DNA of 64,000 nt, taken from Escherichia phage FL23. The notes below the pieces were generated by a model. That model saw nothing but the letters and a program-made list of their open reading frames with translations, did no database searches and had not been told where the DNA came from. Position 1 is the first letter of the stretch, and each line of letters begins with the position of its first letter. Positions 1,090-43,739 of this stretch are shown here, piece after piece. A program made the translations under genes and the position numbers. The DNA is taken from the sequence record PP400787; one strand, 5' to 3'.

Positions 1090-1746
1090 TTATTTAGCCC
1101 TTCCTAATATTCTGGCCGCCTGAGCACATATTGATTCAAGGCGGTCATTACTTATATGATCATTTCTATACCAGTACATGGTTATCGTTCCAGCATAGAT
1201 ATTATCCAAATTAAAATATGGACAACTGTACATGTAGTTTATTTCGGGAGTAGGCTTTTTAGTTGGTAAAAAAGCAAATTTTGAGTTGGAATAATAATGA
1301 CGTCCATTTAAATGAACTGCATATTCATCCATAGTTTTATCAACAGGATATCCTCCAAGTGATTTTTCACTTATTGTTGAAGGTAATTTTCCTTCATATG
1401 CTATAATATCAACAAAATAGTTTAAGTTTTTAGGGCGGAAAGAATACACCGCACTAAAGTCTGCCTCAGATGATATATGAACTATCTGGAGTTGTTCCAG
1501 GGCGACAGATTCAAAGCGTGCATTTCTTTCCTTTTCAATAATTTCACTGTATGTTTCATACTTTGATTGCTTGTAGTACTCAAAGAAACTATCTCCCCTA
1601 TACCAAACAATCGCCATTATAAACAAAAGAATTACGACAGCTACCCGGGAAGCAAGAACTTTCCCGGTAGCGTTATCTTTGAACAAGCGATCTAGAACAC
1701 CAAACAGAATATCAGAGGGCGAAAATGATATTCTAGGTGCTGCCAT
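1090..1746 (-). CDS. t: holin t
   Basis: 218 aa, N-terminal MAAPRISFSPSDILFGVLDRLF and one TM segment; T4 holin; downstream of gene 38. Confidence 0.9.
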   Translation of the reverse strand: MAAPRISFSPSDILFGVLDRLFKDNATGKVLASRVAVVILLFIMAIVWYRGDSFFEYYKQSKYETYSEIIEKERNARFESVALEQLQIVHISSEADFSAVYSFRPKNLNYFVDIIAYEGKLPSTISEKSLGGYPVDKTMDEYAVHLNGRHYYSNSKFAFLPTKKPTPEINYMYSCPYFNLDNIYAGTITMYWYRNDHISNDRLESICAQAARILGRAK

Positions 1747-1776
1747 AGACCCTCCTTTTAAGGATATTTATTCAAA

Positions 1777-2553
1777 TTATACTCTTGGACCATATATTGC
1801 TCCAACATTTATCCACGTTGGAGCAGACCCTATAACAGCATAACCAGCAGCGCCGCCATTATATTCAGATCCTTGACCGCGAATATTGCATCTACCTCCC
1901 GCGGAACCTACTTCACCACCGTTTCCGCCGTTATAGATACCATTCACGGATCCTGAGCCAGGTGCAGAAATAGTACCACCAGTCGCGCCTGATTGCATAT
2001 CAATAGATCCGCCTGGCGCACCAAAAGGACGACCGCCACCGCCGCCAAAGGTCAATCTCATTTGTGAAAAAGGAGAATAATATCCGCCGCCACCGCCGCC
2101 GCCACCGCCTGCAATAGCTCCACCATTATTAATTCTTAGTCTCCCACCAATATCGTTTTGAATACAATGACCTCCAGCTGAGCCAGGACTATTGCTACCG
2201 CCATTCCCGCCACGACCATACATCGTTACGCCGTGTATATTTAACTGAACATATTCATTCGGTGTATCTCCGTACATGAAGAATAAAGGAACATCTTTAG
2301 AATATGATACTAAATCTCCAGTGATATTAAACACTATAGGTGCACTACCTGCCTCAAAACATCTATCTCGGAACCATTGACCATTGAAGTTATGGTCTGC
2401 TCCAAGCGTGTGAATTACTTCAACAGATCGACCTATCATATTACTCATCCAAAATGGAATTCCCATTCTCAATCTCTGCGCGGCACCACCCATCCAAGGG
2501 TCTCCAGTTTGTACCCTCGCAGACCATCCTACCCACGGTCCTTCAACTGCCAT
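1777..2553 (-). CDS. 38: gp38 receptor-recognising adhesin, glycine-rich (T2/T6 type rather than the T4 assembly-chaperone type)
   Basis: Poly-Gly tracts ([23 protein letters not shown]) typical of gp38 adhesin glycine-rich motifs; start at second ATG (2553) preceded by GGAGG; ORF track start 2583 probably too far upstream. Confidence 0.8.
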
Positions 2554-2565
2554 ATAAACCTCCAA

Positions 2566-2579
2566 GGGGCCGAAGCCCC
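2566..2579 (-). other. GGGGCUUCGGCCCC tetraloop hairpin in the 37/38 intercistronic region, immediately 5' of the gene 38 SD
   Basis: Plus strand ggggccgaagcccc; 5-bp GC stem with UUCG loop on the minus-strand mRNA. Confidence 0.7.
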
Positions 2580-2584
2580 TCATT

Positions 2585-5500
2585 TTATTTTAACAATGAT
2601 TTGACTAATTTTTTAAGCTCTTCAATCTCTGACTTAAGTTCCGCAATTTCTGTAGTATGTTCATTTATTGCAGCTGTATTTAAACCAATTACACCGTTAT
2701 AGTTCAAACGAAGTAAAGCTTCGCCATCAGGGTCACCTTCAACTAATTCTGGTAAAATAGCTTGAACTTCTTGGGCTATCAAACCGGCGTTAGGTTCCCA
2801 TTTCTGATTGCCTTCTTCGTCCGTTCCACGTTTCTGCATATAAGTGTAACCGTTAATTTTAGAAAGCTTCTGAGAAGCATTTTCAAATTTAACAAGGTCT
2901 TTTTTAACACGAATATCAGAACGGACATAAACATCACGGACAAACGTTGAATAACTATCATTTGCCTGAACGAGATGCCCATGAGAAACGATAGCTCTTC
3001 CAACTTCTGTCCAAAAAGCACCGGTTGAATCCCAAAGCCCAGGATGAGATTGATAGCCTGCTCCCCAGTTTGCAATATGTACACCATTGGCAACCATGTT
3101 AATTCGCCCATCACCACCATGAACTAATCCGGTATCATTATCACCAATAACAAGACATGGTCCAGTCCACGCCGGGTCACCACCGCCAGCCGATAATCTT
3201 GCTCCGGCTTTAACCATGTCAGGAACGTACATGTTTCCATTATAGTGGAATTCGAAGATAGCTTGTGGGTCGGAACCGTTTTCCTGATTACCTACACGAA
3301 TAATACCTTGTGCCCAGTTATTAGGAATGCGTCGCATACCAAAATCAACACCAGATACGTATCCTTCATTCGTAATAACAGATTTTCCTTTGATAATTGG
3401 ATAATAACTATCATTACCGACGTAGCCAAAATCCACAAATATCGGAGCTTCCTGGCGCCATTGATTTCCCCAATCGCCGGCCTGGTGACTGGTCCAGACA
3501 GAGCCATTAATAAAAAGTCGGTCCCTATTAAAATTAAAAGTGGCAGACCCTTCCGGGTTTAAAGCAATATCACCACCATTATTAACATATATGCCTGATC
3601 TATTTTGGAAACTATAAAACGATATGGCATTATCAGCACCACCATTACCTACATACCAGTTATCAACGCCTGCTTTTTGTCCTTTCAAATAGCCAGATTC
3701 GGTTGCCGCGCTATTAATAACGATGGCATCAGAGTTTGCATTAAGAGTTAAGCGACCTGTCAGCGTATCGCCTTCTTTTGAAACACGGCTATAGACAGCA
3801 CCAAGAAGATTGGTTATATCACCGGAAGAATTAAACGTTTTCCAGATATCAGACCAGATGTTACCATTGCGACCAATAGTAGCTTCACCACCACCAACCT
3901 GGACATTATCAGGGAAGTTAACAGTACCGTCTTGATTAAAACGAGACGTATGGCCTTGTGATCCATCTTCTTTCAGATGATGAATAACGAATGTACCCGA
4001 ATTAATTTCAGTACCTAAAGACCAAACGGCTTTACCGTTTAAAAACTTCTGTTTAACAATAGGATAATATTTGCTTACAGCATCATCATCGATTTCCTGG
4101 AAAATAGGAGCCGCTTGAACATATTGAATATCATAACCACCAGCGCCTGCGCCATGACCAGTAAATTTAATATAGCCGTTTGCTGCGAACGTATTGTAAC
4201 TTGATTGTAAATCTGGAATAGTAACTTTACCAGTATCTAAAGCCATACTAAACGGGCGAAGTGGACCGATATCACCATTTTTACCTTCACCATAAGCAGT
4301 TGGAATAATATGAAGACTTCCTTCTGAACGTCTAAAAATAGCTCCATAATCTGCATTCCAAATGCGAAGAGCATTCACTGCTCCAGATGAAATTTCGCCT
4401 GTTGTGTGAACTCCCCTATTTCCAGCAGTAACACCAGATGATTCAAATGAACCGTTAACGTTCATTTCTACTTCACCTGTTGTAAGTCTTTGAATATAGC
4501 TCATCCAACTAGTTGCATCAGAAATTTCCATGACATTTTTACGATTACCTACACTAGGATTAGTAAACGTATTACCCCAAACAGAAATTGTCATATTATC
4601 AACTGAACTACTACCAGTTGTGTTACCTCTAAACAACAGTGTAGAAGCATTATTTATACCATCGATATTAACAGAACCACCAATAACGTCAATATTACCA
4701 GGAGTAACTAACAAACCGCCATGAGTATTAATGTTTGTAGTACCCTTACCACGGAAATAGTGATGATAATTACCGCCTTGATAATATCCTAAAAGAGTCT
4801 GACCATCTCCAAACGCGTTATTATCGTGGTATGTCACTACAGTAGCAAGAGCATAATTTTCAGTTGGAGGAGTAGTTAAATCGGTTCCGTTAGTAGAATA
4901 TCCAGCTACAAATTTTCTTAGGCTAGTTGTTTCGCTTGGACTAAATAAAAACGTTTTTGTGCCATTGTTAACACTGAAATAATATCCGTCTTGATGCCAT
5001 TTAAATCCAGTATCATTATCTCCTAAAGCAATTGAGGACGTTCCTAATTCAGAATATCCTTTAGGGCCGCCTGGGGTGCCTATAGAAATAGAATGACCCG
5101 CTTTCAATCCACCGGACCATGTAAACGACCAAAGATAAGCGTCAAGTCCATCACCTGCATACCAAGTTATCCCATCATTGTCTTTAACCTCATGAAAAAT
5201 ACCTGCACCTACGGCATTACGCATGACACGAAGATGATTAATAGCAGTAGTGCTTTCAGATAATGGGGTGTTATTTGCTAATGAATAGATATCATAATCT
5301 CCTGCCTTCTTCCCGTTTGTAATAACTTTGTCGGTCAGAATTTGTGGAGACGAAATAGATTTCCATGCTGATACTTCAGGTGAAGTAAATAGGCCACTGC
5401 CTGAAAATGCATAAGTGCTTTCGCTACCAGCGGCGTAGTCTTGAACCCTGATATTAAGTACTTGTGTAGTTAAACCATCATTAGCCGGGGAATAAATGAT

Positions 5501-28236: not shown

Positions 28237-28290
28237 GTTTACAAGTCCCTCGTGTTGTGTTATAGTAGTCTTACTGACATAACATGAGGA
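28237..28290 (+). repeat. 54-bp early-promoter/leader cassette, copy A (identical to 42394-42447)
   Basis: gtttacaagtccctcgtgttgtgttatagtagtcttactgacataacatgagga; -35 GTTTACA, 17-nt spacer, -10 TATAGT, SD GAGGA. Confidence 0.8.
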
Positions 28291-36006: not shown

Positions 36007-36294
36007 ATGTTTATGACTACTTATTTTGATACCCGCAAAAATTTCTGTGAAGTTGTTTTCTCAAAGGCACCTAAAGACCTTCCTGCACATTTGCAACCTA
36101 CTAGCGAATCGATTAAAAACTACGTTGATGTGGTTTGTCCTTTAGAGTTCCGTACTGTAAATGGGCGTGATACTTTAGCTATCACTAAACTCAATCGCGA
36201 AATTGACATTGACCCTTCAATTGCGCGCGAAATTAATATCTCTGATATTGGCGGCGGTAATGTTAAATCGCACGGTTTTCAGATGAGGTTCTAA
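36007..36294 (+). CDS. hypothetical protein (95 aa)
   Basis: ORF with GAGGA SD. Confidence 0.5.
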   Translation: MFMTTYFDTRKNFCEVVFSKAPKDLPAHLQPTSESIKNYVDVVCPLEFRTVNGRDTLAITKLNREIDIDPSIAREINISDIGGGNVKSHGFQMRF

Positions 36295-37978: not shown

Positions 37979-38247
37979 TGTTTGTTGTTCACACTATTTA
38001 TGAAAATGAAGGTAATACTACACGTGATTACGGTCACGTAAATCAATTTTTTAGATGCAATCCAGAATTCCGAGCTCAAAAAGACGAACGAATTTTTAAA
38101 AAATGCGTAGAGCAAGGTTTCATTTATATCAAGCACTGGATGCAAGGAAATAAAGTTAGAACCACATATCATAAGTCTTTGACTGAGCTTAATGATGAAT
38201 TGATTTATAATAGAGCTGTAAACCAAACTCTGAAGGATGAACAATGA
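37978..38247 (+). CDS. hypothetical protein (89 aa)
   Basis: ORF, ATGA-type coupling. Confidence 0.45.
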   Translation: MFVVHTIYENEGNTTRDYGHVNQFFRCNPEFRAQKDERIFKKCVEQGFIYIKHWMQGNKVRTTYHKSLTELNDELIYNRAVNQTLKDEQ

Positions 38248-39707
38248 TTCTTAAAATTCTGAACGAAATAGCATCTATTGGTTCAACTAAGCAGAAGCAA
38301 GCAATTCTTGAAAAGAATAAAGATAATGAATTGCTTAAACGAGTATATCGTCTGACTTATTCTCGTGGGCTGCAGTATTATATCAAGAAATGGCCTAAAC
38401 CTGGTATTGCTACCCAGAGTTTTGGAATGTTGACTCTTACCGATATGCTTGACTTCATTGAATTCACATTAGCTACTCGGAAATTGACTGGAAATGCAGC
38501 AATTGAGGAATTAACTGGATATATCACCGATGGTAAAAAAGATGATGTTGAAGTTTTGCGTCGAGTGATGATGCGAGACCTTGAATGTGGTGCTTCAGTA
38601 TCTATTGCAAACAAAGTTTGGCCAGGTTTAATTCCTGAACAACCTCAAATGCTTGCAAGTTCTTATGATGAAAAAGGCATTAATAGGAATATCAAATTTC
38701 CAGCTTTTGCCCAGTTAAAAGCTGATGGAGCTCGGTGCTTTGCCGAAGTCAGAGGTGATGAATTAGATGATGTTCGTCTTTTATCACGAGCCGGTAATGA
38801 ATATCTAGGATTAGATCTTCTTAAGGAAGAATTAATCAAAATGACCGCTGAAGCTCGCCAGATTCATCCAGAAGGTGTGTTAATTGATGGCGAATTGGTA
38901 TACCATGAGCAAGTTAAAAAGGAGCCAGAAGGCCTAGATTTTCTTTTTGATGCTCATCCTGAAAACAGTAAAGTTAAAGACTTCACAGAAGTAGCTGAAT
39001 CACGTACTGCTTCTAATGGAATCGCTAATAAATCTTTAAAGGGAACCATTTCCGAAAAAGAAGCACAATGCATGAAGTTTCAGGTCTGGGATTATGTACC
39101 GTTGGTAGAAATATACGGTCTTCCTGCATTTCGTTTGAAATATGATGTACGTTTTTCTAAACTAGAACAAATGACATCTGGATATGATAAAGTAATTTTA
39201 ATTGAAAACCAGGTAGTAAATAACCTAGATGAAGCTAAGGTAATTTATAAAAAGTATATTGACCAAGGTCTTGAAGGTATTATTCTCAAAAATATCGATG
39301 GATTATGGGAAAATGCTCGTTCAAAAAATCTCTATAAATTTAAAGAAGTAATTGATGTTGATTTAAAAATTGTAGGAATTTATCCTCACCGTAAAGACCC
39401 TACTAAAGCAGGTGGATTTATTCTTGAGTCAGAGTGTGGAAAAATTAAAGTAAATGCTGGTTCAGGCTTAAAAGATAAAGCCGGTGTAAAATCACATGAA
39501 CTTGACCGTACTCGCATTATGGAAAACCAAAATTATTATATTGGAAAAATTCTAGAGTGCGAATGCAACGGTTGGTTAAAATCTGATGGCCGCACTGATT
39601 ACGTTAAATTATTTCTTCCGATTGCGATTCGTTTACGTGAAGATAAAACTAAAGCTAATACATTCGAAGATGTATTTGGTGATTTTCATGAGGTAACTGG
39701 TTTATGA
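38244..39707 (+). CDS. 30: ATP-dependent DNA ligase
   Basis: 487 aa; MILKILNEIASIGSTKQKQAILEKN; KADG adenylation motif. Confidence 0.9.
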   Translation: MILKILNEIASIGSTKQKQAILEKNKDNELLKRVYRLTYSRGLQYYIKKWPKPGIATQSFGMLTLTDMLDFIEFTLATRKLTGNAAIEELTGYITDGKKDDVEVLRRVMMRDLECGASVSIANKVWPGLIPEQPQMLASSYDEKGINRNIKFPAFAQLKADGARCFAEVRGDELDDVRLLSRAGNEYLGLDLLKEELIKMTAEARQIHPEGVLIDGELVYHEQVKKEPEGLDFLFDAHPENSKVKDFTEVAESRTASNGIANKSLKGTISEKEAQCMKFQVWDYVPLVEIYGLPAFRLKYDVRFSKLEQMTSGYDKVILIENQVVNNLDEAKVIYKKYIDQGLEGIILKNIDGLWENARSKNLYKFKEVIDVDLKIVGIYPHRKDPTKAGGFILESECGKIKVNAGSGLKDKAGVKSHELDRTRIMENQNYYIGKILECECNGWLKSDGRTDYVKLFLPIAIRLREDKTKANTFEDVFGDFHEVTGL

Positions 39708-39892
39708 AAGCTTACTTAGAAACAATTGTCGTGGCTCAAAAAGAAGGTGGAGATGTTTCTACTTCTGTATCACAAATCATGATTGAATTTATAGATGCAT
39801 ACGCTTATAATAAATTCACAGAAACATTTGATGCCTATGAAAAAGGTCCAAAGTTTGAAATATATCGTACTCTCTTACCACTAGATTATTAA
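39704..39892 (+). CDS. hypothetical protein (62 aa)
   Basis: ATGA overlap with ligase stop. Confidence 0.4.
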   Translation: MKAYLETIVVAQKEGGDVSTSVSQIMIEFIDAYAYNKFTETFDAYEKGPKFEIYRTLLPLDY

Positions 39893-39913
39893 AGGCCTTC
39901 GGGCCTTTAATTT
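39891..39913 (+). terminator. rho-independent terminator (UUCG loop)
   Basis: aaaggcc-ttcg-ggccttt followed by aatttt. Confidence 0.75.
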
Positions 39914-39921
39914 TATAAATA
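39914..39921 (+). promoter_or_regulatory. late promoter TATAAATA for alt
   Basis: ttttataaatag, about 20 nt upstream of the alt ATG. Confidence 0.6.
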
Positions 39922-39941: not shown

Positions 39942-42032
39942 ATGATGGAACTAATTACAGAATTATTTGACGAAGATACTACTCTTCCGATTACAAACTT
40001 AAATCCAAAGAAGAAAATACCACAAATTTTTTCAGTTCATGTTGATGATGCAATTGAACAACCAGGCTTTCGTTTATGTACCTATACATCTGGAGGTGAT
40101 ACTAATCGCGATTTAAAGATGGGCGATAAAATGATGCATATTGTTCCTTTTACATTAACTGCTAAAGGTTCAATTGCCAAATTAAAAGGTCTTGGTCCAA
40201 GCCCAATTAATTATATCAATTCAGTTTTTACTGTTGCAATGCAAACAATGCGTCAGTATAAAATTGATGCCTGCATGCTTCGTATTCTTAAGTCTAAAAC
40301 CGCTGGTCAAGCTCGACAAATTCAAGTTATTGCTGATAGACTTATCCGTAGTCGTTCAGGGGGCAGATACGTCCTTCTTAAGGAACTCTGGGATTATGAT
40401 AAAAAGTACGCATATATTCTTATACATCGCAAAAATGTATCACTGGAAGACATTCCGGGAGTTCCGGAAATTAGTACCGAGCTCTTTACTAAAGTTGAAT
40501 CGAAGGTCGGTGATGTTTATATCAATAAAGATACTGGAGCTCAAGTAACTAAAAATGAGGCAATTGCAGCATCTATTGCGCAAGAAAATGATAAACGTTC
40601 TGATCAAGCTGTAATCGTTAAAGTTAAAATTTCCCGTAGAGCAATTGCACAAAGCCAGTCATTGGAATCTTCTAGATTTGAAAGTGAATTATTCCAGAAG
40701 TATGAATCTACCGCAGCTAATTTCAATAAACCTGCTACCGCTCCTTTAATTCCCGAAGCAGAAGAAATGAAGCTTGGAATTAATTCATTAGCTTCTAAAA
40801 CTAAGGCAGCAAAAATTATTGCCGAAGGAACTGCGAATGAACTTCACTATGACTATAAATTCTTTTCAAAAAGTGAGGTTGATGAAGTTTCTGAAAAAAT
40901 TAAAGATGTAATTCTTAATGCGATTAAAAATGAACCAACTACTTCAATAAAATGTTTAGAGAAATACGCAGCAGCTGTTAATCAACTCTTTGAAGAATAT
41001 AAAGATAATTGGCTTGATAAACATAATAAAACTCGTAAAGGGCAGACAGATGAAGTCTGGGGAGAAATAACTAAAAATGCCTGGAATGCAGCAAAAACTA
41101 AATTCCTCAAACGAATGATTTATAGTTTTTCTGGAATTGGTGCAGGCCCAATGATTGATATTACTATTGCCCGTGATGGTTCTAAATATACTCCATCGCA
41201 AAAGCGCGGTATTAGAGAGTATTGTGGTTCAGGATATACAGACATTAATAATCTTCTTTTAGGTCGTTACAATCCAGAACGATATGATGTAATGAGTGAA
41301 AAAGAAATTGAATCTGCTATAAATAATTTAGATTCAGCTTTTGAAAATGGTGACCGCATACCGGAAGGCATTACAGTTTATCGTGCTCAAAGTATGACTG
41401 CTCCTATATACGAAGCACTAGTTAAAAATAAAGTGTTCTATTTCAGAAATTTTGTATCTACTTCTTTAACTCCTATCATTTTTGGACGTTTTGGAATTAC
41501 ACATGCTGGTATTGGTCTTTTAGAACCAGAAGCTCGTAATGAATTAACAGTTGATAAAAATGAAGAAGGAATAACTATTAATCCAAACGAAATAAGAGCG
41601 TATAAAGAAAATCCTGAATACGTTAAAGTTCAAATAGGATGGGCAATTGATGGAGCTCATAAAGTTAATGTTGTATATCCAGGAAGTCTCGGAATAGCAA
41701 CAGAAGCTGAAGTTATTCTACCGCGCGGACTGATGGTCAAAGTTAATAAAATAACTGATGCTTCTAATAATGACGGAACAACATCTAACAATACAAAACT
41801 CATTCAAGCTGAAGTTATGACCACAGAAGAACTCACCGAATCGGTAATCTATGACGGAGACCATTTAATGGAAACTGGTGAATTGGTTACAATGACAGGT
41901 GATATAGAAGATAGAGTTGACTTTGCATCATTTGTTTCATCAAATGTTAAACAGAAAGTAGAATCATCTCTTGGAATTATTGCGTCTTGCATAGATATTA
42001 CAAACATGCCTTACAAGTTCGTTCAAGGATAA
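39942..42032 (+). CDS. alt: Alt, virion-packaged ADP-ribosyltransferase
   Basis: 696 aa; N-terminal MELITELFD capsid-targeting-like region; ART R-S-E motifs (YRAQ, FVSTSL); late promoter. Confidence 0.8.
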   Translation: MMELITELFDEDTTLPITNLNPKKKIPQIFSVHVDDAIEQPGFRLCTYTSGGDTNRDLKMGDKMMHIVPFTLTAKGSIAKLKGLGPSPINYINSVFTVAMQTMRQYKIDACMLRILKSKTAGQARQIQVIADRLIRSRSGGRYVLLKELWDYDKKYAYILIHRKNVSLEDIPGVPEISTELFTKVESKVGDVYINKDTGAQVTKNEAIAASIAQENDKRSDQAVIVKVKISRRAIAQSQSLESSRFESELFQKYESTAANFNKPATAPLIPEAEEMKLGINSLASKTKAAKIIAEGTANELHYDYKFFSKSEVDEVSEKIKDVILNAIKNEPTTSIKCLEKYAAAVNQLFEEYKDNWLDKHNKTRKGQTDEVWGEITKNAWNAAKTKFLKRMIYSFSGIGAGPMIDITIARDGSKYTPSQKRGIREYCGSGYTDINNLLLGRYNPERYDVMSEKEIESAINNLDSAFENGDRIPEGITVYRAQSMTAPIYEALVKNKVFYFRNFVSTSLTPIIFGRFGITHAGIGLLEPEARNELTVDKNEEGITINPNEIRAYKENPEYVKVQIGWAIDGAHKVNVVYPGSLGIATEAEVILPRGLMVKVNKITDASNNDGTTSNNTKLIQAEVMTTEELTESVIYDGDHLMETGELVTMTGDIEDRVDFASFVSSNVKQKVESSLGIIASCIDITNMPYKFVQG

Positions 42033-42035
42033 ATC

Positions 42036-42422
42036 ATGGAACTTATTACAGAATTATTTGACGGCGCTTCGGCGCCGGTTGTTAACTTAAATCCTAAGCA
42101 TAAAATACCACAAATTTTTGCTATCCAAGCCGGCGAAGAAAGCGTGCTTCCTGGATTTAGATTTTGTACATATACCTCTGGTGGTGATACAAATAAAAAC
42201 GTTAAGCCAGGCGATAAAATGATGCATATCGTAATGATAGGCGTCAACGAGAAATTATCGCTGGTTAAGCTTAGAAACTTGGGTGGAAATCCAATTGGCG
42301 TCATTAATGCGGTTTTTGATACTGCTCTTCAAACAATGAAGCAGTATAAAATTGACGCATGCCTATTCCGCGTACTAAAAAGTTCAAAATGTAGTTTACA
42401 AGTCCCTCGTGTTGTGTTATAG
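42036..42422 (+). CDS. truncated Alt N-terminal paralog (128 aa)
   Basis: MELITELFDG...LPGFRFCTYTSGGDTN...MMHIV...KQYKIDAC parallels Alt residues 1-125; ORF ends inside repeat copy B. Confidence 0.55.
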   Translation: MELITELFDGASAPVVNLNPKHKIPQIFAIQAGEESVLPGFRFCTYTSGGDTNKNVKPGDKMMHIVMIGVNEKLSLVKLRNLGGNPIGVINAVFDTALQTMKQYKIDACLFRVLKSSKCSLQVPRVVL

Positions 42423-42447
42423 TAGTCTTACTGACATAACATGAGGA
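42394..42447 (+). repeat. 54-bp early-promoter/leader cassette, copy B (identical to 28237-28290)
   Basis: Exact 54/54 match found by eye; flanks differ. Confidence 0.8.
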
Positions 42448-42454
42448 ACACAAA

Positions 42455-42745
42455 ATGAAATCTTCTTTGCGCTTTTTAGGTCAAGAACTTGTAGTTGAAG
42501 GCGTTATTCCTGCTGATAATGCTTTTAACGAAGCAGTTTATGATGAATTTATCAAAATTTTCGGAACAGATAAAAAGTTTGGAATTTTTCCTTCTAAAAA
42601 TTTTTCAAAGCCAGAACAGACTGAAAGTATTTTTCAGGGTGTAGTAACAGGTAAATTTGAGTCAGAAGCTCCTGTAAAAATTGAAGTTTATATTGAAGAC
42701 GGTTTAGTTGCTTCAGTTGCTGCTTTCATTTCATTCCGTAAATAA
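42455..42745 (+). CDS. hypothetical protein (96 aa) expressed from cassette copy B
   Basis: ATG 8 nt after the cassette SD. Confidence 0.5.
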   Translation: MKSSLRFLGQELVVEGVIPADNAFNEAVYDEFIKIFGTDKKFGIFPSKNFSKPEQTESIFQGVVTGKFESEAPVKIEVYIEDGLVASVAAFISFRK

Positions 42746-42751
42746 AAATAT

Positions 42752-42769
42752 GGGGACCGAAAGGTCCCC
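42752..42769. terminator. bidirectional terminator hairpin (GAAA loop) between convergent ORF and gene 54
   Basis: ggggacc-gaaa-ggtcccc with A/T runs on both sides. Confidence 0.7.
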
Positions 42770-42773
42770 ATTG

Positions 42774-43739
42774 TTATATTGCTCCTAATATTTTACTTTG
42801 CGAATTGACAATTCCTGTCATGGTATTAATGTTTGAAATGCTTCCAGCAGTTCCCCCTAATCTACTGAGTCGTGAAAGCGAATTAGATAGTCCAGTAACG
42901 CCTCCGCTATTTCCGAGAACGCTTTGAATACCATTTATAGCAGCAGATTCAAGCCATTCAAGCGCAGCTTGCCTATCAACTGCTCCAGCCTGCATCACTC
43001 TATACGCAAAAGTAACGTCAAATGTAGTTATTTGGTTATCTCCATCATATGATAACTCAGGAGCGCTCACTGATATTGGAATGCATCCGGTGAACATCAC
43101 CGCAGTATGAGGCAATCCATTACGAGAATGAAGATTAACTTGGATATCCGCCTCAACATCTTGCGGCAGAGCACGCAATCCAGTTACTGGGTCTTGAACA
43201 GCATTAACCCAGTCTTGCATTGCACGATAGTTACAAGCTTCTGAATCCATTCTAAATGAAATAACCAAAGGGTCTAATTCTCTCCCAGTTATACGAATAT
43301 TAGGGGAATTATAGTTCCAGTCAGTTTCATAAGATAATCTATTCTCTGGCATTTTTACAGAATATATCATCAATCCAGATGAGTTATATGCCATGTTAAA
43401 GAAGTCAATTAAATATGTACCAACTGTAAATGAGCCTAATAAACTCTGGACAGTACGTTGACTCATGGCACCAATAAGATATTTACTGACTCCTGATTTT
43501 CTTATTAGTTTTTGTGTGCCAGCTGTAATTAGCGTGGTAATTCCCTGATTAATATCACCTTGAGTTAATCCTAACCAATTTGAATTTAGGCCCAAGTTAT
43601 TATAAGAAAAGTTGCTAATTGAACTTATCAACGAAGAGCTTTTAGTTGATGGAGTTGTCGCAAAAACGCAGCTAAACATATTATTACGTTGGAAATCTGC
43701 GTTTATTGCTTGATTATTAAATTCCTCTAAAGAATACAT
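42774..43739 (-). CDS. 54: gp54 baseplate tail-tube initiator
   Basis: 321 aa; MYSLEEFNNQAINADFQRNNMF. Confidence 0.9.
   Translation of the reverse strand: MYSLEEFNNQAINADFQRNNMFSCVFATTPSTKSSSLISSISNFSYNNLGLNSNWLGLTQGDINQGITTLITAGTQKLIRKSGVSKYLIGAMSQRTVQSLLGSFTVGTYLIDFFNMAYNSSGLMIYSVKMPENRLSYETDWNYNSPNIRITGRELDPLVISFRMDSEACNYRAMQDWVNAVQDPVTGLRALPQDVEADIQVNLHSRNGLPHTAVMFTGCIPISVSAPELSYDGDNQITTFDVTFAYRVMQAGAVDRQAALEWLESAAINGIQSVLGNSGGVTGLSNSLSRLSRLGGTAGSISNINTMTGIVNSQSKILGAI

Follow-up and report, generated by a model that had tools for sequence, protein, structure and literature searches.

The open reading frame of 128 codons that lies directly downstream of alt in Escherichia phage FL23 is very likely the remnant of alt.-2, a second tandem paralog of alt that was cut by a 1699-bp deletion, and we judge its product to be neither under selection nor needed for any function. 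The stretch of DNA analysed here, called the window, is the 64,000-nucleotide sequence of record PP400787, and all coordinates refer to it unless another locus is named. We regard the remnant (the stub) as a little-eroded pseudogene which is probably expressed, and whose frame would not yet have acquired a disabling mutation in the window.

The existence of such a remnant is already known from the annotation of T4 and from Nolan et al. 2006 (PMC1524935), where T4 alt.-1 and alt.-2 are listed as paralogous duplications of alt. The GenBank note of T4T states that [quoted passage not shown], and the record of Yersinia phage fPS-2 labels its own version "similar to N-terminal of ... Alt; putative pseudogene".

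The truncated paralog downstream of alt

Over 41800-42800 the identity is 100% to the Tequatrovirus Escherichia phage FL44 (PP400790.1) and 96.5% to T4. The + strand carries gene 30, alt.1, alt, the stub and alt.-3 in this order, followed by genes 54, 48 and 29 on the - strand; this placement of the stub, with alt before it and alt.-3 and then genes 54, 48 and 29 after it, agrees with T4T. The features of this neighbourhood are the following.

38244-39707, + strand: gene 30, DNA ligase
39704-39892, + strand: alt.1
39891-39908: hairpin and T-run, read by eye as the terminator of alt.1; the terminator scan did not flag it
39914-39921, + strand: TATAAATA, in agreement with the late-promoter consensus of T4, located after the alt.1 hairpin and 20 nt before alt
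39942-42032, + strand: alt, 696 aa, the intact paralog, an ADP-ribosyltransferase packaged in the phage head (PF03496, phrog_802; annotation of T4T and FL44)
42025-42029, + strand: AAGGA, Shine-Dalgarno sequence of the stub, 6 nt before its ATG; the same signal is used by full-length alt.-2
42036-42422, + strand: stub open reading frame, 128 aa, equivalent to T4 alt.-1 plus alt.-2 as one frame
42036-42383, + strand: part homologous to alt.-2, codons 1-116, whose amino acid sequence is 100% identical to Alt.-2 of RB27, RB3, EC.W13-3 and T2
42455-42745, + strand: alt.-3 (DUF5498), 96 aa, the gene served by the cassette described below (PF17602, E 3e-63; T4T annotation)
42750-42771, both strands: terminator-like hairpin between alt.-3 and gene 54, found by the scan and annotated as a bidirectional terminator in fPS-2

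The stub begins with an ATG situated 3 nt past the stop codon of alt (TAA, 42030-42032), exactly where the first-pass annotation had placed it. The span given there, 42036-42447, was right in its start and wrong in its end, 42447 being the end of the repeated cassette and the reading frame closing at 42422. The same annotation had recognized the product as a truncated paralog of Alt, and BLASTP against the window's own Alt confirms this with 71 identities over 117 positions (61%, E 2e-48), in an alignment that covers stub residues 1-116 and Alt residues 2-118 and lies far above chance. Residues 1-117 also match positions 2-120 of the 674 positions of the phrog_802 (Alt-like) profile (E 5e-51). 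The absence of the ADP-ribosyltransferase (ART) domain, likewise claimed from the letters, holds as well: the Pfam search gave no match in the 128-aa product and located PF03496 (ADPrib_exo_Tox) at residues 379-628 of Alt and 416-620 of RB51 Alt.-2. Lacking this domain, the stub cannot be an ADP-ribosyltransferase.

In a wider search for homologues of the N-terminal region, 65 representative proteins matched; 51 of them are 563-712 aa long and match at their N-terminus, the others being mostly fragments of 36-229 aa. A word-indexed protein search returned three short matches for the stub and three for Alt residues 1-120. A protein identical to the 128-aa product is among the deposited sequences of phage FL23. 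Fragments of the N-terminal region of Alt carry a precomputed Pfam match, PF26846.1, and a newer Pfam family therefore seems to cover this region. A PDB sequence search with Alt gave only weak matches to the ART domain (binary toxin components) and none for the N-terminal region.

At the stub's exact position, a full-length alt.-2 of 685 aa is found in RB51, RB3, EC.W13-3, RB27, T2, IME340 and pSs-1 (at 2601-4658 of the extracted RB27 locus, with equivalents in T2, RB3 and RB51), and all seven sampled copies are uninterrupted. It is under the name alt.-2 that the RB51 and RB3 records describe this gene, whose product possesses the ART domain and is 41% identical to Alt over its whole length; T4 is without a full-length Alt.-2, and our literature searches turned up no functional study of the protein. 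The stub shares the start codon, the ribosome-binding site and the position of the full-length gene of T2, RB3, RB27 and RB51, but it lacks residues 117-685, the ART domain included. Its residues 1-116 are 99-100% identical to those of the full-length homologues, and the stretch containing the Shine-Dalgarno sequence is identical in the alignment of the sampled full-length and deleted forms, with the sole exception of HMD-9, which has one substitution in the first alignment column, upstream of the Shine-Dalgarno sequence itself.

The full-length form is also the common one. With the 118 homologous residues as query, tblastn retrieved 379 records at identities of at least 99%, and the matches inspected all fall at the beginning of full-length genes of 685 aa. 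When the stub DNA was used as a 425-nt query, 499 records matched, of which approximately 90 span the deletion junction and approximately 400 match only the first 348 nt; as this is the pattern of the seven full-length loci checked, about 400 records would be in the full-length state.

A deletion between 9-bp direct repeats and the resident cassette

The origin of the stub can be read from its junction. Five of the seven full-length alleles (RB51, RB3, RB27, T2 and pSs-1) carry the 9-mer CTAAAAAGT in two copies within alt.-2, one at gene position 340 and the other, 1699 bp further on, at 2039; in EC.W13-3 and IME340 the left copy has a G, so that the pair is not exact. The window retains a single copy, with alt.-2 codons 1-116 on its left and the last 11 nt of alt.-2 on its right.

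42375-42383, + strand: CTAAAAAGT, sole remaining copy of the 9-bp direct repeat at the junction
42384-42394, + strand: 3' end of the ancestral alt.-2 (11 nt) with the former stop codon TAG at 42392-42394; the stub reads these letters in another frame, as ...SKC

When 1699 bp were removed in silico between the two RB27 copies, the resulting sequence differed from the window (42036-42514) by 5 mismatches in 479 nt, all of them synonymous, and the predicted 128-aa protein was identical. A 1699-bp deletion between the 9-bp repeats has taken out everything of alt.-2 between codon 117 and a point 11 nt short of the gene end. From the anatomy of this junction, slipped mispairing or illegitimate recombination at the short repeat would have caused the loss. 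Since 1699 is not a multiple of 3 (the remainder is 1), the frame skips the ancestral TAG and ends 28 nt later in the promoter of alt.-3; it is only because the deletion shifts the frame by +1 that the stub enters the cassette at all.

This cassette is a perfect 54-nt direct repeat, none being expected in shuffled sequences, and its copy B contains a predicted hairpin.

28237-28290, + strand: cassette copy A, exact, between rnlA and alc
42394-42447, + strand: cassette copy B, with the predicted early promoter of alt.-3, the 5' leader and the Shine-Dalgarno sequence GAGGA (42443-42447)
42402-42449, + strand: predicted RNA hairpin of 20 bp in the cassette (-23 kcal/mol, z-score -4.67; a fold equalled by none of 200 shuffles)

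The alt.-3 promoter is predicted with a -35 hexamer TTTACA (42395-42400), a 17-nt spacer containing TG and a -10 hexamer TATAGT (42418-42423). The end of the stub is indeed read from copy B, as the first-pass annotation had seen, with codons 120-128 and the stop TAG (42420-42422) in the cassette and the stop lying within the -10 hexamer.

It had further been proposed that the cassette replaced the rest of a duplicated alt gene. This proposal is refuted by the phages with full-length alt.-2 (RB27, EC.W13-3, RB51 and others), which already have the same cassette at the same place, and again by the endpoints of the deletion, both inside the alt.-2 coding sequence with the right one 11 nt upstream of the cassette. 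In RB27 and EC.W13-3 the 54 nt are exact and overlap the end of the alt.-2 stop codon by a single base, the first of the cassette; RB51 has one mismatch, and in T4T the cassette is present without mismatch between rnlA and alc and with one mismatch before alt.-3. Because it follows the alt.-2 stop in full-length phages, the cassette is best read as the resident early promoter and leader of alt.-3, into which the stub merely runs. In the window the element is identical before alc and before alt.-3 and serves the two genes. The supplement of PMC9697503 puts T4 alt.-3 in the early class for RNA as well as protein, and T4 mutants with a C-terminal extension of Alt.-3 escape the CmdTAC defence by blocking the degradation of CmdA (bioRxiv 10.1101/2024.02.24.581662). 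A DNA repeat shared by the start of alt.-3 with an open reading frame of 65 aa at 36294 was considered and rejected, as it is weak and not significant at the protein level (E 0.055).

The layout of the cassette is that of the PeSLs (Arbiol et al. 2010, PMC2839356; Comeau et al. 2014, PMC4122927): an upstream stop codon, a sigma-70-type early promoter, a stem-loop over the -10 box, and the Shine-Dalgarno sequence and start of the next gene. It is also repeated in the genome, in two exact copies, and by layout and repetition would count as a PeSL cassette. PeSL-mediated rearrangements are recombinations between two PeSLs, and the deletion that made the stub differs from them: neither endpoint falls within a cassette, the second copy of which lies at a distance of 14 kb. 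A PeSL-mediated deletion or replacement is ruled out, the endpoints being the 9-bp repeat within alt.-2 and the cassette being intact and in place in full-length phages. To judge by these endpoints, the event is a microhomology deletion and not a PeSL-PeSL exchange.

The same junction underlies the two small genes of T4. The first-pass annotation had suggested an alignment with the alt-adjacent open reading frames of T4 and its relatives, and this alignment identifies the stub as the remnant that T4 carries as alt.-1 plus alt.-2, in unsplit form. The family of the 61-aa T4 Alt.-1 (phrog_23015) matches stub residues 1-56 and that of the 67-aa T4 Alt.-2 (phrog_15247) residues 62-128. The T4 genes (UniProt P39495 and P39494; PHROG 23015 and 15247) occupy the same locus between alt and alt.-3, and have the same deletion junction and the same out-of-frame C-terminal tail, ...SSKCSLQVPRVVL, ending in the -10 box of alt.-3; in the alignment, the junction (CTAAAAAGT followed by TCAAAATGTAG) is identical in T4T and in the window. 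They differ by a 1-nt deletion in the A-run of codon 54, whereas the window keeps the full A-run and a single frame of 128 codons. That T4 lists two small open reading frames is thus due to the same junction and a later 1-nt frameshift, and the window, by this alignment, carries a rare allele that has undergone the deletion and precedes the T4-type frameshift.

Decay of the stub among deletion-type phages

We aligned 18 deletion-type loci, chosen for their spread of identity among the approximately 90, with 7 full-length loci of the approximately 400. The junction is common to all 18, F25 having an extra 1-nt deletion in the A-run of the junction. The state of the frame in these loci is as follows.

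Open 128-aa frame (3 of 18): FL44 (100% identical to the window at 41800-42800), AV121, N2
Nonsense mutation at E6 (GAA to TAA) only (6 of 18): fPS-2, EC128, AV119, FL12, fPS-90, 215Ecol030PP
-1 frameshift in the A-run of codon 54 only, the T4 lesion (5 of 18): T4T, an IMG/VR contig, G8, F25, HMD-9
Both the E6 nonsense mutation and the codon 54 frameshift (4 of 18): slur08, ACG-C40, pSe_SNUABM_01, PD112

The frame is consequently broken in 15 of the 18 loci, by the E6 nonsense mutation in a total of 10 and by the codon 54 frameshift in a total of 9, and PD112 and F25 each have one further 1-nt deletion (-1). The kinds of variants point in the same direction: the variants present in the full-length alleles are 28 synonymous and 2 nonsynonymous, and the variants private to the deleted alleles comprise 8 synonymous, 7 nonsynonymous, 1 nonsense and 3 indel changes (Fisher's exact p = 1.3e-4), "private" being defined on the 7 full-length alleles, so that some of these variants may occur in other full-length alleles. 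Among the options left by the first-pass annotation, "simply a decaying duplicate" is the one favoured by this breakage of 15 out of 18 deleted copies against 7 intact full-length copies out of 7, and by the excess of protein-altering variants. The window's own allele is intact, with no amino acid change from full-length Alt.-2 over 116 residues, and the decay is accordingly deduced from the relatives and is not visible in the window itself. The ratio of nonsynonymous to synonymous divergence between the paralogs, also proposed as a check, was computed between alt and the stub (dN 0.32, dS 1.56); this divergence reflects the old history of the full-length genes and not that of the stub.

Among protein sequences at large, the unbroken form is clearly a minority. 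In a collection of 15 billion proteins, the exact 128-aa protein is present on 4 contigs (phages FL44 and FL23), T4 Alt.-1 on 188 and T4 Alt.-2 on 178, the T4 counts being inflated by laboratory stocks of T4, which leaves the conclusion unchanged. On the alleles of the nonsense type, gene callers draw open reading frames of 92 aa, which occur on approximately 30 contigs of the same collection.

The stub DNA of the window (42036-42383) is 98.6% identical to the full-length alt.-2 of RB27, versus 95% to the T4 stub, and deleted and full-length alleles share haplotype blocks. Recombination of deleted with full-length alleles would account for these identities, and so would a deletion that recurred at the 9-bp repeat.

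Public annotation of the locus is inconsistent across AV121, AV119, fPS-90, F25 and HMD-9. Several records give the name "RNA polymerase-ADP-ribosyltransferase" to the stub or to fragments of it (61-128 aa) despite the lack of a catalytic domain, and the HMD-9 record labels alt.-3 "tail length tape-measure protein".

Expression of the stub and possible roles

The stub is very probably present on the alt mRNA, to judge from the late-promoter motif upstream of alt and from the first terminator-like site of the + strand downstream of alt, which the terminator scan places at 42750-42771, beyond alt.-3. The late-promoter consensus of T4 to which TATAAATA corresponds is that of Nolan 2006 (PMC1524935). 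With the ribosome-binding site of alt.-2 kept and no terminator between alt and the stub, the latter would probably be co-transcribed with alt and translated, giving an N-terminal fragment of Alt.-2 with an out-of-frame tail of 11 residues. The expression signals being good, the protein is probably made, and a protein that is made could have effects.

In the T4 time course, the supplement of PMC9697503 classes alt.-1 and alt.-2 RNA as "middle", like alt. Its proteome table gives zero intensity for Alt.-1 in 24 of 24 samples, and Alt.-2 is not found among the proteins listed there; Alt is quantified in the same table and rises late, and Alt.-3 is quantified and abundant from early times. This suggests that the T4 stub products are unstable or scarce, for a proteome which concerns the split pieces of 61 and 67 aa and not the 128-aa product.

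Could the unbroken stub nevertheless be more than debris? It might supply a late-made free Alt.-2 module that enters the prohead, or its translation might open the hairpin and unmask the ribosome-binding site of alt.-3 on a late read-through mRNA. From the sequence features at hand, we consider it unlikely that either is the case.

The second of these roles concerns the predicted hairpin, also contained in copy A, whose 5' arm is formed by the promoter spacer and the -10 box and whose 3' arm pairs the Shine-Dalgarno sequence GAGGA. Transcripts starting at the cassette's own promoter would be devoid of the 5' arm and would have a free ribosome-binding site, and in transcripts reading through from alt the hairpin would be complete and would mask the alt.-3 ribosome-binding site. 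T4 controls the translation of some of its genes, for example gene e (lysozyme), by hairpins that differ between transcripts. Ribosomes ending in the 5' arm, at the stub stop (42420-42422), would open the hairpin and couple late translation of alt.-3 to the alt mRNA; the predicted stability of the structure, the pairing of CCUC with GAGGA, the position of the stub stop 28 nt deeper into the hairpin than the ancestral alt.-2 stop, and the fact that the alt.-2 piece of T4 ends at this same stop all agree with such a coupling. However, the E6 nonsense alleles would abolish most of the translation through the stub and yet are frequent (10 of 18 loci), alt.-3 belongs to the early genes, has a promoter of its own and is abundant from early times, and the alignment, inspected by eye, holds no covariation for the hairpin, only two one-sided changes from G-U to A-U. 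Because the codon 6 nonsense alleles are so common, we consider it very unlikely that cis-regulation of alt.-3 is a selected function of the stub.

The first role would make the 128-aa product a functional stand-alone module that keeps the part of Alt and Alt.-2 directing them to the prohead core, and that is packaged and competes with Alt or is injected as a small effector. In the head core, Alt is present at approximately 40 copies, and the prohead protease shortens it by a small peptide at the N-terminus (PMC9958956). The stub has kept its start codon and Shine-Dalgarno sequence, would be co-transcribed with alt, whose product is made late and packaged (PMC9697503), and begins with the same nine residues as Alt, MELITELFD.

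Some indication that the N-terminal region may act as a unit comes from the Yersinia phage PST (NC_027404.1), which has a single chimeric alt gene (1160-3220 of the extracted locus) with residues 1 to approximately 100 that are 100% identical to the window's Alt and a remainder that is 95-100% identical to RB27 Alt.-2. With PST the locus would have a third state, produced by unequal recombination of the tandem paralogs with loss of the Alt body instead of Alt.-2, and the chimera suggests that the first 100 or so residues can serve either enzyme body as an interchangeable module. This is compatible with a shared N-terminal module and says nothing on a free fragment.

Against a packaged module stand the frame itself, broken in 15 of 18 deletion-type relatives and at codon 6 in 10 of them, the excess of protein-altering changes on the deleted alleles, and the T4 proteome, where neither Alt.-1 nor Alt.-2 is quantified among the proteins listed (PMC9697503); the widespread breakage argues against a selected role. 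Furthermore, the alignment of Alt and Alt.-2 runs unbroken through residue 237 or so, and residue 116 is no evident domain boundary. A boundary at residues 112-117, where matches in distant homologues end, was rejected, these ends being imposed by a query whose homology stops at 116. The structure model (AlphaFold2, alignment of 5 sequences, mean pLDDT 55) is of low confidence. As for targeting, Alt resembles the IPII/IPIII system in being a head-core protein with a cleaved N-terminal peptide, and the stub keeps the first nine residues of Alt; the capsid-targeting sequence (CTS) of the T4 internal proteins IPII and IPIII, an N-terminal stretch of approximately 10 aa that directs packaging before the prohead protease cleaves, is however not conserved in other core proteins according to a review (PMC9958956), and the stub cannot be filed as CTS-bearing. 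We thus hold a packaged module to be highly improbable, and the head-packaged decoy envisaged by the first-pass annotation is unsupported.

That the stub could be an artefact of assembly or sequencing, produced by the collapse of a full-length second alt gene, is next to impossible, with the junction spanned by approximately 90 public records and present in 18 of the 18 loci aligned, T4 included, its carriers comprising several independent T4 sequences, two IMG/VR contigs and isolates from Denmark, Poland, China, South Korea and Canada.

In conclusion, the stub very likely represents what is left of alt.-2 after the 1699-bp deletion, and it should not carry the ADP-ribosyltransferase annotation that it has in several GenBank records. 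What the present analysis adds to the earlier descriptions is that the cassette replaced nothing and that the deletion maps to a 9-bp direct repeat and measures 1699 bp; as a discovery this has little weight. Were the hairpin-opening role to be true, the stub would provide a late expression of Alt.-3 that is absent from the phages with full-length alt.-2. Close relatives display three states of the locus, namely tandem alt and alt.-2, alt and the stub, and the single alt::alt.-2 chimera of PST, and Alt.-2 emerges as a paralog that most relatives of T4 have kept and that T4 has lost. The locus is, in this respect, a tidy natural example of the loss or merging of the tandem paralogs of an injected enzyme.
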